Source of the DNA: an uncultured Candidatus Saccharibacteria bacterium
GTDB lineage: Bacteria; Patescibacteriota; Minisyncoccia; UBA6257; 2-01-FULL-56-20
Reading direction: 5' to 3'
NCBI GenBank assembly: GCA_964374065.1
Contig: CAYJWW010000002.1
Location: 4,153-68,152 of the forward strand
Length of the DNA: 64,000 nt
The notes beneath the pieces were generated by a model. It had not been told where the DNA came from. It made no database searches and saw only the letters and a list, made by a program, of their open reading frames with translations. Shown here piece after piece: positions 17,052 to 24,254 of this stretch. The translations under genes were made by a program, and so were the position numbers. Position 1 is the stretch's first letter. Each line of letters begins with the position of its first letter.

Positions 17052-17470
17052 GGGGACGATTGTAAGTTCAGTTCGAACGCGCGCTGCACGTTTGCCGCAG
17101 CTCCCACCGATCGAATAAGTTTGGTGTTGAAATCTCTGCAGTCGTTCGTCGGAGTGCACGCGATCGTGAACGACCCTCCGTTCGACATGGGCATCGCGGG
17201 CTGGGGATGGGAGGACCCGGGGTTAAAATATTGGAAAAGCCCCCACTCTACGCCGGCATCCGCCGCATAGATCGCCTTTCCCGAATTCCCGATATCCGTT
17301 GCCTGTCGGATCTGGTAGACCATAAGGAGCCCCGCGATGGTTGTGGCGCCTAATATCGTCCCGCCGATGGCGAGAACCGTAAGGATCATCACCTGGCCGC
17401 ACCGCGCCCGTCGGCGCGCAGAAAATGGAAAATAGAAAGTAAAAAGTAGAAGACGGCGCGTTTGTTTCAT
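17048..17470 (-). CDS. membrane protein with a pilin-like basic leader (MKQTRR...[16 protein letters not shown]) that shares its 5' module with the 23659-24198 gene
   Basis: 141-aa ORF. Its N-terminal ~25 codons and ~60 nt of upstream sequence are about 90% identical at nucleotide level to the corresponding region of 23659..24198. There is a TM helix after the G-Q junction but no Glu at +5. Confidence 0.45.
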
Positions 17471-17519
17471 TGCAGTTTGGATTTTATCTCTAATTCTGGA
17501 TTCCATTTTCTAGATTCTA
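17396..17519. repeat. conserved ~125-nt 5' module, copy 1 (5'UTR plus first ~25 codons of the pilin-like gene)
   Basis: cgcgcccgtcggcgcgcagaaaatggaaaatagaaag...cggcgcgtttgtttcattgcagtttggattttatctctaattctggattcc..., about 90% identical to copy 2. Confidence 0.85.
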
Positions 17520-18035
17520 TGTATCGAGCGTCCTCGGACTCACAGTAGTCTGTAGGTGAATAACGCTCTCGTCAACGCCGCGCTCTCGCGCGCTCACGCC
17601 CAAATTTATGACGATCCGCGGCTGCACGTTATCCCCGACCGCATTGCCGATCGGCCGGAAGGTCAGATAGCGGATATTCACGTTGTCGGCCGTGATCCGC
17701 GCGAAGGCGCCTCCTCCAACCCGCCGCTCGATCCCTCCGTCGGATACCCCGCCTCCTTTCCTGTATGTAACGACTTCACCTGCGGCATTTTTGAACGCAA
17801 GCTCATTTGAGGTGCACGTCTGACCGTTCACGCAGAAGTCAAACCCGGTCCGGACCTCCCGATTCATCTGCTCGAGCGCCAAGCTCATATTGCTGTTCGC
17901 GGAAAGGAGCGCTGAATTCTGGCGTTGCGTTTTAAGCGCGTTCACGAATCCGCCGACCGCGATCGTCACGCCAACCGAAAAAAGCGCGATCGCGACGAGC
18001 AATTCCACGAGCGTAAAGCCGCGGCGGCGTTCCAT
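17517..18035 (-). CDS. type IV pilin-like protein (minor pilin or pseudopilin)
   Basis: Class III signal MERRRG|FTLVELLVAIALFSV with cleavage Gly, Phe+1 and Glu+5; 172 aa. Confidence 0.75.
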   Translation of the reverse strand: MERRRGFTLVELLVAIALFSVGVTIAVGGFVNALKTQRQNSALLSANSNMSLALEQMNREVRTGFDFCVNGQTCTSNELAFKNAAGEVVTYRKGGGVSDGGIERRVGGGAFARITADNVNIRYLTFRPIGNAVGDNVQPRIVINLGVSARERGVDESVIHLQTTVSPRTLDT

Positions 18036-18079
18036 ATCCCTATTTTCTCATTTCTCACTCTTATTCTCTAGTCCTACCG

Positions 18080-19372
18080 CTACGGCCTGATCTCTTTTAA
18101 TTTCCCTCCGCTTGATTCAAACGCTCGAACTGTCGTCGTGGCTGTCGCGTTCGCGCCGCCCCCCTGCCCCGCGCACGTGATCGTATAGGTGGTGGATTGG
18201 GTGGGCTGTACGGTCGTCGTGCCGTTCGCGGGGACGGAGCCGACCGCGGGAGCGATGGCGCAGGAAGAGACGCGTTCGCAGGTCCAGGAAAGGGTGGAGG
18301 ACTTGGGGGGCGGGATCACGAGGCGGTCGGGGAAGGCGGTGAAGCTCGTGCATGTGGGGGCGCAGTCCGAGGCGCGGTCGCACTCGTTGGGGCCGGAGCC
18401 GGGGATCGTGGCGCAGGAGTTGAACTGGCAGACGCGCTTCGTGCAGAGGGGCACCCGGAAGGAGGTGCTTGGGCTGTGGGCGCCGTTGAAGACTCGGGCA
18501 TAGTAGGTCACGCCGGGCTGGAGCGAGAGCGTGTCCGACTGCTGGGGCCAGATGCCCCTGAAGTTCTCTCCGTTCGTCGATTGGGAGAGAGACTGCTTGT
18601 TATAGAAGGAACCGAAGCCCGGGTCGTCGTCGATGTCCACGTAATAGCCGAAGCCGGGGTTGGGGCTGCCGGACCAGGAGATCGCGATCTGGTCGTTGTA
18701 CGGAGAGACGGTGCAGGCGGGGAGGCCGGAGACCGTGGGGCCGGAGGGAGCGTAGGAGCCTTGGGAGTAGTAGGAACCCTGGGAGTAGCCGGGAGCGTAG
18801 GTGCCTTGGGAGTAGTAGGAGCCTTGGTAGGAGCCCTGTGAGTAACCGGGAGCGTAGGTGCCTTGGGCGTAGTAGTACCCCTGGGCGTAGTAGTAACCTT
18901 GGGTGTAGTAGTACCCCTGGGCGTAGTAGTAGCCCTGGGCGTAACCGGGAGCGTAGGTGCTTTGGGCGTAGTAGTACCCCTGGGCGTAGTAATAGCCTTG
19001 GGTGTAGTAGTACCCCTGAGCATAGTAGTACCCTTGGGCGTAATAATATCCTTGGCTATAGTAATAACCCTGGCCGTAGTAATAACCTTCGGCGTAGGCC
19101 GGAGGGGGGGCGCACGCGCAATCCTGGCCAGATTGGCAATATGAGCCGCCGCACGGTTCGATATCCCAAGGCTTGTCTTCGCAATAGGGCTCGCCGTAGT
19201 CGCAGCTGCATTGAAATGATCCGAGTGGATAGCATGCGCCCTGCGGTGGGTTGACGGTCGGATCGCAATAGCCCTGCGATTCGCACGTAACCCATGTAGC
19301 CGCGAGGAGCGCATGGGGCACGCCCGCCAAAGCAAGGAGAGCAAGAACAAAAATAACGCGATCTGGTTTCAT
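18080..19372 (-). CDS. secreted Cys-rich protein with (QGYYY[AST])n Tyr/Gly repeats and two C-terminal FN3/Ig-like domains (paralog A)
   Basis: 430 aa with signal peptide MKPDRVIFVLALLALAGVPHALLA, a Cys-rich N-terminal region, about 20 GYYYAQ-type repeats, and a C-terminal ~285 aa identical to paralog B. Confidence 0.7.
   Translation of the reverse strand: MKPDRVIFVLALLALAGVPHALLAATWVTCESQGYCDPTVNPPQGACYPLGSFQCSCDYGEPYCEDKPWDIEPCGGSYCQSGQDCACAPPPAYAEGYYYGQGYYYSQGYYYAQGYYYAQGYYYTQGYYYAQGYYYAQSTYAPGYAQGYYYAQGYYYTQGYYYAQGYYYAQGTYAPGYSQGSYQGSYYSQGTYAPGYSQGSYYSQGSYAPSGPTVSGLPACTVSPYNDQIAISWSGSPNPGFGYYVDIDDDPGFGSFYNKQSLSQSTNGENFRGIWPQQSDTLSLQPGVTYYARVFNGAHSPSTSFRVPLCTKRVCQFNSCATIPGSGPNECDRASDCAPTCTSFTAFPDRLVIPPPKSSTLSWTCERVSSCAIAPAVGSVPANGTTTVQPTQSTTYTITCAGQGGGANATATTTVRAFESSGGKLKEIRP
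18084..18942. repeat. direct repeat copy 1 (about 859 bp, essentially 100% identical to 20853-21711)
   Basis: The ORF-track artefact ORFs 18117-18383, 18189-18503 and 18197-18841 have translations identical to those at +2769. Flanks were checked by eye. Confidence 0.9.
18760..19095. repeat. in-frame tandem array of about 18-nt units encoding GYYY[AST]Q within paralog A
   Basis: Reiterated gcgtagtagta(c/g)cc(c/t)tggg units on the plus strand. Confidence 0.8.
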
Positions 19373-22884: not shown

Positions 22885-22936
22885 ATATTGATTATAGGCG
22901 AAATGGTGCGGGCCGCAATGGATGCGGCCCGGCTGT

Positions 22937-23569
22937 TTATTGCGATACGACTCGTAATCCCAACATCACGCGCCAATCGGTGGGCACGAGGAGATCCTGG
23001 CCGCTCTCATTGAAGCGCGCCGTGGCCTGGGCGGTGTTCGTCACGCCTCCGCTCGGGAGCGCCATGTCGAAGACGACCGCGATGCAGACGGGCGAGCGCC
23101 ACGCGGGGTCGCTCTCATCGAAGGGCGGTCCCTGCGTTCCTGCAGTCCGCCCAACGGCACTGAGCTGCATGGAAATCTTCCGGCCGGGAACGGCGGGATG
23201 GGCCACGCAAAGGCGGACCGTGTGTGTATCGCGATGACTCCGCAACAGATACGTCTTCTCTGTCCCGGGAACTCCGAGAGAAGCGTCGTCTGTGGGCGAA
23301 AGCTCTCGCGTGCAGGCCGCGGGATCATTCGGACAATTCCCTTCATAGACCCCGTACGTTGCCGAAGCGCGCACGCCGGGACCGGGTCCCGGCGGAAGAT
23401 TCCCCGGTCCGACCGGCCCCTGCACGCACGAGGGCCCCGTGGGAGTTCCGATGCAGTTCGGGCTCTTGTCCTCCTTCTTGCCGCAGCCCGAACCGAGGGT
23501 CCCGAAGGCGAGCGCGAGCGCGGAGGCGAGAAGCACGCTCCGCGTCCGCCCGAGTTCCGTATGACGCAT
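22937..23569 (-). CDS. putative secreted protein or lipoprotein (Cys- and Gly/Pro-rich)
   Basis: Start chosen at MRHTELG, preceded by AGGAGG. Signal peptide followed by LGSGC; 211 aa. The longer 331-aa ORF is judged to be upstream read-through. Confidence 0.5.
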   Translation of the reverse strand: MRHTELGRTRSVLLASALALAFGTLGSGCGKKEDKSPNCIGTPTGPSCVQGPVGPGNLPPGPGPGVRASATYGVYEGNCPNDPAACTRELSPTDDASLGVPGTEKTYLLRSHRDTHTVRLCVAHPAVPGRKISMQLSAVGRTAGTQGPPFDESDPAWRSPVCIAVVFDMALPSGGVTNTAQATARFNESGQDLLVPTDWRVMLGLRVVSQ

Positions 23570-23658
23570 GGCGCCTCCTATCTCTCGGATCCCCGAGAAT
23601 GCCGACGTGCCGTTCGCTGCTGCCGCAACTATACTACAGGCCGCTCCCGGCGCCAACC

Positions 23659-24198
23659 CTAGTTCTGCGGCCGCCAATTGAAGAAATGGTCCTCGAGATT
23701 GATGTCGTATTCTCCGCCGCGGCTTGACCAAGAAACAATGGAGTTCACCTTGATCTCGTTCCCGCCCACGAGTGCGACGCGGATGGTCCGCGTAAAGGGC
23801 GTCACGACCGAACCGCCGTAGCTGTAGAGGTTCTGCGACGGATCGAAAAGGAGGAACCTGCTCTGCGTCGCTTCCAAGAGCGCGCTTGCATACTGCACTT
23901 CGAAATCCCCGTTCGAGAAACCGCTGTTCCACGGGCGGTTCTGGATTACGTTCGTATCGATGATATTCTTCACCACCTCGAGTCCCTCGGCCGCGAGATA
24001 CGTCGCAGTGTAATTATCGGATACGACGCGATTCAGGCTGATCGAACGCGAAAGAAGAGTGAGAATGCCCAAAAAGCCGACGGTCAAAATCCCCAGCGCG
24101 ACGAGCGATTCGACGACGACTTGCCCCCGGCGCGCCCGTCGGCGCGCAGAAAATGGAAAATAGAAAGCGGAAAGCGGAAAACGGCGCGTTTGTTCCAT
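23659..24198 (-). CDS. type IV pilin-like protein with a long basic leader ([25 protein letters not shown]|QVVVE...)
   Basis: Gly-Gln junction with Glu at +5 followed by a hydrophobic helix; 179 aa. Its 5' module is shared with 17048..17470. Confidence 0.55.
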   Translation of the reverse strand: MEQTRRFPLSAFYFPFSARRRARRGQVVVESLVALGILTVGFLGILTLLSRSISLNRVVSDNYTATYLAAEGLEVVKNIIDTNVIQNRPWNSGFSNGDFEVQYASALLEATQSRFLLFDPSQNLYSYGGSVVTPFTRTIRVALVGGNEIKVNSIVSWSSRGGEYDINLEDHFFNWRPQN

Positions 24199-24254
24199 TG
24201 CAGTTTGGATTTTGTCTCTAATTCTGGATTCTATTTTCTAGGCTCTAGATTCTA
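24124..24254. repeat. conserved ~125-nt 5' module, copy 2
   Basis: Same sequence as copy 1 with a 7-nt internal duplication (tctaggctctag). Confidence 0.85.

Follow-up and report, generated by a model that had tools for sequence, protein, structure and literature searches.

The cyanobacterial short tandemly repeated repetitive (STRR) sequences are intergenic tandem repeats of heptanucleotides, and the Rickettsia palindromic elements, the Correia elements of Neisseria, the REPINs and the miniature inverted-repeat transposable elements (MITEs) are palindromic elements found in coding regions or at gene junctions. Other intergenic heptanucleotide tandem repeats are GGGAATC in Xanthomonas and GGGGAYT in Nostoc (PMC4692102). 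The TAACTGA repeats of the Beggiatoaceae lie just upstream of start codons, with few Shine-Dalgarno (SD) sequences, and a translational role has been proposed for them (PMC4679880). Intervening sequences (IVSs) with an S23p/PF05635 open reading frame (ORF) and terminal inverted repeats are held to be selfish elements of 23S rRNA, for example in Coxiella burnetii (PMC4990558). Here, a repeated module that forms the 5' ends of two pilin-like genes, called A and B, was analyzed in 64,000 nt of DNA from an uncultured Candidatus Saccharibacteria bacterium (GenBank assembly GCA_964374065.1, contig CAYJWW010000002.1, positions 4,153 to 68,152 of the forward strand), referred to as the window. On balance, we consider it probable that the module is an ORF-less, IVS-like hairpin or simple sequence repeat (SSR) junction element that was copied once within the locus and is tolerated because the prepilin peptidase PilD removes its translation product.

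The two copies and the genes that they introduce are as follows.
17396..17519, minus strand: module copy A, with the TAG stop at 17517-17519, a 46-nt spacer, the ATG at 17470, leader codons 1-25, and the Gly codon at 17396-17398
24124..24254, minus strand: module copy B, laid out as copy A plus one extra heptad in the 5' arm, with the ATG at 24198 and the Gly codon at 24124-24126
17048..17470, minus strand: gene A, 140 aa, with a 25-aa leader, a putative G|Q junction, and no Glu at +5; last of the minor-pilin set (GspK/PilX position)
23659..24198, minus strand: gene B, 179 aa, with a 25-aa leader and G|QVVVE (Glu at +5); a GspI/PilV-like minor pseudopilin

A repeat search of the window aligned 17391-17519 with 24119-24247 on the minus strand as an ungapped direct repeat at 88% identity, and allowing one 7-nt indel extended the second copy to 24254. 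With blastn, the copies matched each other at E=4e-35, and no third copy was found in the 64-kb window. An earlier note, made from the sequence alone, had described a shared spacer and leader unit on two pilin-like genes at these coordinates, and both the unit and the coordinates were confirmed. The 19-nt core TTTCTATTTTCCATTTTCT occurred exactly twice in the window, compared with 0.03 occurrences expected. The repeat is not limited to leader codons, since it includes the non-coding spacer (46 nt in A and 53 nt in B), which fills the whole gap after the upstream stop codon in both loci. Each copy opens with the TAG that terminates the N_methyl pseudopilin gene lying upstream. The module also contains the ATG of the gene that follows, together with about 22 of its codons, and ends two to three codons ahead of the Gly codon. 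All three third positions of the Gly-Gln-Val codons differ between genes A and B; thus, DNA homology ends just short of the junction. Downstream of the module, the coding parts of the two genes are unrelated at the DNA level, in agreement with the earlier note, and the sequences flanking the copies are also unrelated. Duplication during assembly was ruled out by the 12% divergence between the copies and by their different flanks.

Each copy consists of two arrays of degenerate heptanucleotide repeats, inverted relative to each other, and a small GC hairpin.
17485..17519, minus strand: 5' arm of copy A, TAGAATC TAGAAAA TGGAATC CAGAATT AGAGATA, with the inverted-repeat arm at 17494-17511
17420..17452, minus strand: 3' arm of copy A, CTTCTAC TTTTTAC TTTCTAT TTTCCAT TTTCT, in the leader reading frame
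17403..17419, minus strand: GC hairpin of copy A, GCGCGCC-GACG-GGCGCG, read as ARRRAR
24213..24254, minus strand: 5' arm of copy B, (TAGNNNN)x4 followed by CAGAATT AGAGACA, with stop codons in 3/3 frames
24148..24184, minus strand: 3' arm of copy B, TTTCCGC TTTCCGC TTTCTAT TTTCCAT TTTCT, read as FPLSAFYFPFS
24130..24147, minus strand: GC hairpin of copy B, GCGCGCC-GACG-GGCGCGC

In copy A, 17420-17437 pairs with 17494-17511 (18 nt, 83% complementary) around a 56-nt loop that contains the ATG, and in copy B, 24222-24239 pairs with either 24148-24165 or 24156-24172. Overall, the 18-nt arms are inverted complements at 78-83%, with loops of 49-56 nt. The observed arm-pairing score was reached by 1/1000 whole-sequence shuffles for copy A and 9/1000 for copy B, and by 6/1000 half-wise shuffles in which the A-rich and T-rich halves were preserved. 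The 5' arm of copy A has stop codons in both frames other than that of gene A. Neither start codon is preceded by an SD sequence, and the ATG sits in the A-rich loop. Tandem Repeats Finder (TRF) placed period-7 arrays at 17420-17451, 24149-24184, 24217-24254, and 26306-26353; at least three tandem 7-nt units are thus present in a spacer or ahead of a start codon, and (TAGNNNN)3 matched eight times against 3.0 expected. The window has four different units, and no single characteristic unit is reused in it. The first two 3' heptads are more alike within each copy than to their counterparts in the other copy, a pattern that points to ongoing local slippage. The inverted hairpin of heptanucleotide repeats had been overlooked in the earlier note, and the odd peptide described there is its translation: FYFPFS is the translation of TTC TAT TTT CCA TTT TCT, and ARRRAR from the GC hairpin is what had been taken for a second Arg cluster.

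Hundreds of homologues of genes A and B were found in Patescibacteria metagenomes. Across 240 homologues of both families, the Gly was invariant and the Gln invariant or nearly so, which makes the Gly-Gln junction pointed out previously a family-wide site of the processing type; it was recognizable in 110 of 120 gene-B homologues and 94 of 120 gene-A homologues. The gene B family reads G|Q(or Y)xxxE ahead of a hydrophobic helix, with G25 and E30 invariant, and the gene A family reads G|Q(V/A)M(I/L)LTVLALGG without Glu at +5. As had been noticed before, Glu at +5 is present in gene B (QVVVE) only; the junction of gene A (QVMIL) lacks it, as in GspK/PilX-type proteins. Basic residues precede the Gly at -1 in the window proteins (RCG|Q and RRG|Q). 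Neither protein matched PF07963 (N_methyl) or TIGR02532, the +1 residue being Gln and not Phe or Met, and gene B had only a sub-threshold match to TIGR02523 (PilV). AlphaFold2 (AF2) modeled residues 1-25 of both proteins as a low-confidence coil; in the gene A model, the coil (1-26) is followed by a helix (27-82) and three strands, and the predicted fold is of the prepilin type, with a hydrophobic N-terminal helix starting at the putative cleavage site and a beta-sheet head. From the conserved residues, G|Q looks like a processing site of the prepilin type, albeit one whose +1 residue is unusual. Gene A was assigned to the putative GspK/PilX slot because of its position and the absent Glu at +5. 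Class III prepilin and pseudopilin sets (GspH-I-J-K and FimU-PilV-PilW-PilX) share with this locus a basic leader ending in Gly, a hydrophobic helix of ~20 residues, Glu at +5 in the GspI-like gene but not in the last gene, the four-gene order, and PilD in the locus. What sets this locus apart is that the families of genes A and B have Gln (or Tyr) at +1 rather than Phe/Met, that neither window protein has an N_methyl Pfam match, that the leader is long (25 aa), and that the set is split by 5.6 kb. Ribosomal bypassing or fusion of adjacent pilins was rejected, as there are no matching take-off and landing codons and the fused product would be senseless.

Leaders of 122 related genes ranged from 3 to ~60 aa (median of 12 aa), and the 25-aa leaders of genes A and B are at the long end of the family range. 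Mature parts that are 92-95% identical carry leaders as different as MKNNG, MLKPKTQNLEPNSG, and MSEVRSQKSKVKSRGG, and a second contrast is MKKG versus MKSFNLSIFQFFNRNGG. Because near-identical mature parts carry unrelated leaders, the leader peptide is not a conserved signal; it is a translation of T-rich heptamers and the GC hairpin. Many leaders of homologues resemble translated low-complexity DNA, and coding changes between the window copies are mostly non-synonymous (K/E, L/F, L/P, F/S, T/A, and C/R). These results bear on the idea that the amino acid sequence of the leader is read as an atypical targeting signal, either Tat-like (twin-arginine translocation) or a special long prepilin leader, for which the TRR near the N terminus and the basic cluster before the Gly would speak. 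The window leader sequence was absent from 238 homologues, apart from a loose DNA-level resemblance in P0084 and P0095, and AF2 returned nothing but a low-confidence coil for the leader. TRRLLL and TRRFPL in the window leaders do not fit S/T-R-R-x-F-L-K, no match to the TAT-signal model was obtained in NCBIfam at E<=0.1, and the motif is conserved in no homologue; a Tat signal peptide is thus not supported. Neither the twin-arginine-like reading of the earlier note nor a conserved targeting code gains support from this comparison, and we give an amino-acid-based targeting signal almost no credence.

According to the reading that we prefer, the two inverted arrays together with the GC hairpin would constitute the element, and its two copies would be paralogous. 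The element would fill the space from the upstream pseudopilin gene to the processing site of the next minor pilin and provide the start codon, with its 3' arm translated into the leader peptide. All residues N-terminal of the Gly would then act as a class III (prepilin) leader, remaining in the cytoplasm and being removed by PilD at G|Q, and the gene would survive because this leader is cut off. Being removed, the peptide would carry no information beyond the basic residues next to the Gly. The 88% identity may reflect recent copying, by transposition-like spread or ectopic conversion, followed by local heptad slippage that would have added the extra heptad in copy B and homogenized neighboring heptads within each copy.

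The comparison set consisted of 85 related loci (1.23 Mb). Period 7 was the commonest tandem period (264 of 897 arrays; period 6, 54; period 8, 86), with 163 distinct canonical heptad units among 258 arrays. Period-7 arrays were intergenic in 34% of cases, compared with 12% of the sequence, and 21% were located within 200 nt 5' of pilin-type junctions, in zones that make up 4.5% of the sequence; the corresponding value for other periods was 7-11%. Neighboring arrays were inverted complements in 14 of 52 pairs. Long-range inverted repeats around the start codon, with scores of at least 12, were present in 10.2% of the windows at pilin junctions, compared with 5.7% at the starts of other ORFs and 0.7% for random windows. 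The inverted arrangement is thus recurrent, not universal, and about 2-fold specific to pilin genes. Like the known intergenic heptanucleotide repeats, these arrays are over-represented 7-nt tandem units that are mostly intergenic and often upstream of starts without SD sequences; they have stop codons in the forward direction and are translatable in reverse, some inverted pairs can fold into stem-loops, and close relatives differ strongly in their arrays. Unlike them, they have no common unit, are typically inverted pairs around a start codon or ORF, have a 3' array that is routinely translated in a cleavable prepilin leader, and are hosted by Paceibacteria of the candidate phyla radiation (CPR). 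A full-text literature search that paired heptanucleotide repeats or pilins with CPR/Paceibacteria returned no report of such arrays in these bacteria. The new features are the host lineage, the absence of a common unit, the inverted arrays around starts and PF05635 ORFs at mRNA junctions, and the fact that one arm is routinely translated as a cleavable prepilin leader.

PF05635-like ORFs in the related loci were bracketed by inverted arrays in 9/9 cases, seven of them directly 5' of a pilin-like gene, and they were found at junctions equivalent to those in the window in L007, L010, L029, L072, L083, and L107. Several continue in frame into G|FTLxE. At the gene A site of L107, an ORF for PF05635 (23S rRNA IVS protein) lies between inverted heptad arrays, of which the 3' array is translated as the leader. 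The gene B site has three different states in L106, L107, and L108, whose flanks are ~95% identical: a 7-nt spacer, an (AAAACCT)n leader, and an inverted repeat with (AAGTCAA)n. No PF05635-like sequence was found in the 64-kb window by tblastn. As in 23S rRNA IVSs, the PF05635 ORFs of the related loci lie between terminal inverted repeats capable of forming a stem, and the window module, with its stem-capable arms, resembles an ORF-less version. An IVS is regarded as being tolerated through its removal after transcription, and by analogy the element here would be tolerated through removal of the leader by PilD. The differences are that the site is an mRNA or operon junction and not helix 25 or 45 of rRNA, that the arms are heptad arrays, that the window module has no ORF, and that excision by RNase III would destroy the start codon.

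In-frame chains of a PF05635 (bAvd-like) ORF, a heptad array, and a G|FTLxE pseudopilin were located at 10553-11413 in L083, 9033-9959 in L007, 6987-7865 in L010, and 2731-3606 in L029. If such fusions are translated as one chain, cleavage by PilD would free a four-helix-bundle protein into the cytoplasm. A broader proposal is that Paceibacteria have a class of IVS-like inverted-heptad hairpins, with or without a PF05635 ORF, that preferentially settle immediately 5' of the prepilin cleavage site and are expressed in the cleavable leader; PilD would free the PF05635 protein in the fused cases, this protein would bind the arrays, and pilus-tip composition would come under fast-evolving, strain-specific control through translation tuning or RNase III. 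We regard this proposal as quite unlikely.

The module could also have arisen simply by ectopic gene conversion involving the 5' ends of paralogous minor pilin genes, in which case it would not be an element at all and the heptads would be an ordinary slippage-prone spacer. There has been other recent recombination nearby (a 98% identical duplicate of ~1.1 kb spaced 2769 bp apart), neither a target duplication nor a third copy was seen in the window, and heptameric SSRs are over-represented and fast-evolving in the intergenic DNA of several bacteria (PMC4692102). However, there is no 5' homology to anchor a conversion tract, the upstream genes being unrelated, and the 3' homology amounts to the G-Q-V codons only, each with a different third position. 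Conversion also leaves the inverted arrangement unexplained, as well as the constant bracketing of PF05635 ORFs by such arms, and we consider it decidedly unlikely.

A second shared unit was found in L001, where genes A and B also have a spacer and leader in common, of a sequence entirely different from the window module. It contains a perfect inverted repeat of 21-23 bp (fold z = -7.2 and -7.6) with conserved arms and a diverging loop; the two copies differ by a compensatory change, and L001 and L008 by three double changes. The 20-nt arm of this type was present in 21 metagenome contigs, ~12 of which had the partner arm 88-131 nt away; these copies were mostly away from pilin genes, with unrelated loops and flanking GCAG/GCAT direct repeats. 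The L001-type repeat is a dispersed palindromic element, and it has the dispersed copies, target-site duplication, and presence/absence polymorphism of a MITE or REPIN. No transposase associated with it was identified. In the metagenome contigs L085-L105 and in L001 and L008, the palindromic element has conserved 20-bp terminal inverted repeats (CCCGGTGCTACAACTGCGAT...), and it is in tandem in L090 and L105. Leaders of the form ...GQA(5-6 aa)SGQVM were seen in gene A of L009, L031, and L072 and in P0138, P0160, P0187, P0195, and P0215. They derive from a direct duplication (24 nt) of GGGCA(A/G)G that encloses a GCCC...GGGC mini-hairpin, and this duplication resembles a footprint that the L001-type element has left on the Gly-Gln codons.

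With the known palindromic elements, the modules share the form of short hairpin repeats that are copied within a genome and tolerated in or beside ORFs, and the L001-type module matches them further in its 20-bp terminal inverted repeats, flanking GCAG/GCAT repeats, and dispersed copies. The window module differs in having two known copies, no visible target duplication, and terminal repeats built from repeats. Shared 5' units were also seen in other loci. In L002, a G|Q gene and the G|F gene after it have an identical leader, MKFLDTRYQILDTRKG, and 120 nt are common to the H-like gene and gene B in L060. In L042, a 159-nt non-coding segment is 98% identical upstream of pilB-like and pilC-like genes. 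The copies of this repeat are at 2397-2555, 5480-5638, and 868-946, including a third copy (85%) 5' of a further gene of the pilus cluster; the segment may be a promoter or 5' untranslated region that these genes have in common. Portable 5' modules are therefore real, sporadic, and genome-specific, so that the portable cassette proposed in the earlier note stands as to portability, given its recurrence in L001, L002, L060, and L042, and fails as to the targeting signal.

These shared units lead to the alternative of a functional cis-regulatory cassette. The intergenic hairpin would present an AUG without an SD sequence in an open A-rich loop and set translation, mRNA processing (e.g., by RNase III), or stability, such that the tip pilins are co-regulated, possibly through a heptad-binding S1, Csp, or PF05635 protein. 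The window has heptad arrays at three pilus-operon junctions and almost nowhere else, and the SD-less starts of genes A and B recall the similarly placed TAACTGA repeats of the Beggiatoaceae, with their proposed translational role (PMC4679880). Further points in its favor are the recurrence of shared 5' modules within single genomes, including the 98% identical 159-nt repeat of L042, and the L001 element, with arms kept, loop diverged, a compensatory change, and three double changes between L001 and L008. The structure is nevertheless missing at ~90% of orthologous junctions, and arm sequences differ within one genome (L030 and L060) and among near-identical strains. The mismatches in 29 stems were 13 G.U versus 17 A.C; there is no excess of G.U over A.C and hence no RNA-specific signature. 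The fold z-scores of the window copies are near zero, and no Rfam match was obtained within the modules at a permissive threshold. Selection on RNA structure thus gained no support, in view of the missing G.U excess and Rfam match. A promoter and terminator scan of 17000-26600 gave a single weak consensus match, in copy B only, contrary to the putative promoter that had been placed in the module. We consider a cis-regulatory cassette possible though unlikely.

Several of these observations also weigh against the tolerated junction element that we favor. The heptad arrays found by TRF in the window are almost confined to pilus-operon junctions, and together with the ~2-fold pilin enrichment, this location could be explained equally well by a function in pilin expression as by tolerance. 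The hairpin is weak energetically: the RNA fold of the whole module had no extra stability over dinucleotide shuffles (z = -0.2 to -0.4). A core of 36-38 nt is perfectly conserved between the copies, which is also compatible with selection on sequence. Only two copies were seen in the 64 kb, as the further copies envisaged in the earlier note were found neither in the window nor, as full-length relatives, in the related loci (1.2 Mb) or among viral contigs; no target-site duplication is seen, and any mobility of the window module is hypothetical. Gln at +1 would be unusual for cleavage by PilD, and we infer the cleavage at G|Q, the use of the ATGs at 17470 and 24198 as translation starts, the route of copying, and the absence of a dedicated function. 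The repeat, its borders, the inverted heptads, the family-wide G|Q with hypervariable leaders, and the recurrence at related pilin junctions, with or without a PF05635 ORF, were observed directly.

The CTCTT repeats in the signal peptide of Neisseria opa genes are a slipped-strand phase-variation switch, and heptad gain or loss in a coding leader could likewise shift the pilin frame, as 7 is not a multiple of 3. The heptads are within a dispensable coding leader, the copies differ by an indel of one heptad with homogenization within each copy, and perfect arrays of 4-7 units are present in relatives, e.g., (TCAATTC)x4.4 in the L083 leader. However, all 122 of 122 related genes have an intact in-frame start upstream of the Gly, with no OFF-phase allele among them. 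The window arrays in the module are only 80-93% regular (TRF) and would therefore slip poorly, and two assemblies (L083 and L084) have equal heptad copy numbers. Phase variation by slippage is accordingly very improbable. An invertible DNA switch, with the arms as recombinase sites and flipping of the ATG loop toggling the gene, is suggested by inverted repeats around the start codon and by the same arms at two genes of one genome. The loops are just 49-107 nt, however, and had the same orientation in all compared copies (window A and B, L001 A and B, L090, and L105). The arms differ between genes in L030 and L060, and 122/122 genes are in the ON configuration; we hold such a switch to be extremely improbable.

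Reading the module as a tolerated junction element would account for the odd long-leader annotations on CPR pilin genes, where strings such as FNFSIFQFF, SKVKSQKSKVK, FYILHS, and FYFPFS are translated repeat DNA and not signals, which is of relevance to signal-peptide prediction and start-codon calling in CPR genomes. A cleavable prepilin leader may serve as a safe harbor for repeat or hairpin elements. The arrays tie heptanucleotide repeats to PF05635 ("23S rRNA IVS protein") genes outside rRNA and form a strain-level hypervariable site beside presumed pilus-tip genes, the pilus being thought to mediate host contact of episymbionts. Should the elements prove to be regulators of expression, they would amount to a simple control device that acts in cis.

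The pilus genes and the fourth array of the window, all on the minus strand like the other genes relevant to the module, include the following.
17517..18035, minus strand: upstream pseudopilin of gene A, RRG|FTLVELL, N_methyl, with weak GspJ/PilW-type matches; its stop is the first triplet of copy A
24252..24821, minus strand: upstream pseudopilin of gene B, RRG|YTLLELL, N_methyl, with a weak GspH-type match; its stop is the first triplet of copy B
24856..25656, minus strand: prepilin peptidase PilD, A24_N_bact (PF06750) and Peptidase_A24 (PF01478), the presumed processing enzyme
26306..26353, minus strand: near-perfect heptad array, (CTGAATC)x6.9 on the coding strand (97% of positions matching), located after the stop of PilC and ahead of the major pilin gene at 25717-26229

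The order of transcription is T2SSE ATPase (27578-28651), PilC (26359-27570), pilin (25717-26229), PilD (24856-25656), GspH-like pseudopilin (24252-24821), gene B, six non-pilus genes, GspJ-like pseudopilin (17517-18035), gene A, and LigA. The PilD gene is 0.6 kb upstream of module copy B and adjoins T2SSF, T2SSE, and the pilin gene. The sequence GGTTTCAGGTTCCAGG, partly complementary to the 26306-26353 array, is directly ahead of the SD sequence of the major pilin, and this array is a junction element of the same kind as the module in the same operon. Purine-rich heptads with stop codons are also present 5' of the GspJ-like gene (18036-18079).

Syntenic loci of other Paceibacteria have the same order of pilin, PilD, H-like gene, gene B, J-like gene, gene A, and LigA. 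In the 43 related loci that were compared with the window, the minor-pilin set (H-like, B, J-like, and A) is contiguous in 24 genomes, with 1.0-1.5 kb from B to A, and 2.3-8.9 kb of extra genes lie between them in 19. In these 19 split sets, the inserted, unrelated genes separate the J-like gene either from B or from A, and gene A mostly stays beside LigA. The window set is split by 5.6 kb of unrelated genes; the module copies do not directly flank these inserted non-pilus genes, so that the suggested bracketing of a recombination-prone region was not borne out. Within the 5.6-kb block, 18072-19372 and 20841-22375 (minus strand) encode two secreted Tyr-rich proteins (430 and 510 aa) with 18-nt repeats for GYYY(A/T/S)Q. 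Their 3' parts of ~1.1 kb are 98-100% identical at an offset of 2769 bp, and their N-terminal parts differ; neither protein had a Pfam match. Directly downstream of LigA, 14584-14994 holds a LAGLIDADG-like ORF (PF14528, E=2.8e-7) in a stretch with a G+C content of 0.39-0.49, compared with ~0.58 in neighboring 200-nt windows, and this ORF may be a homing-endonuclease remnant.

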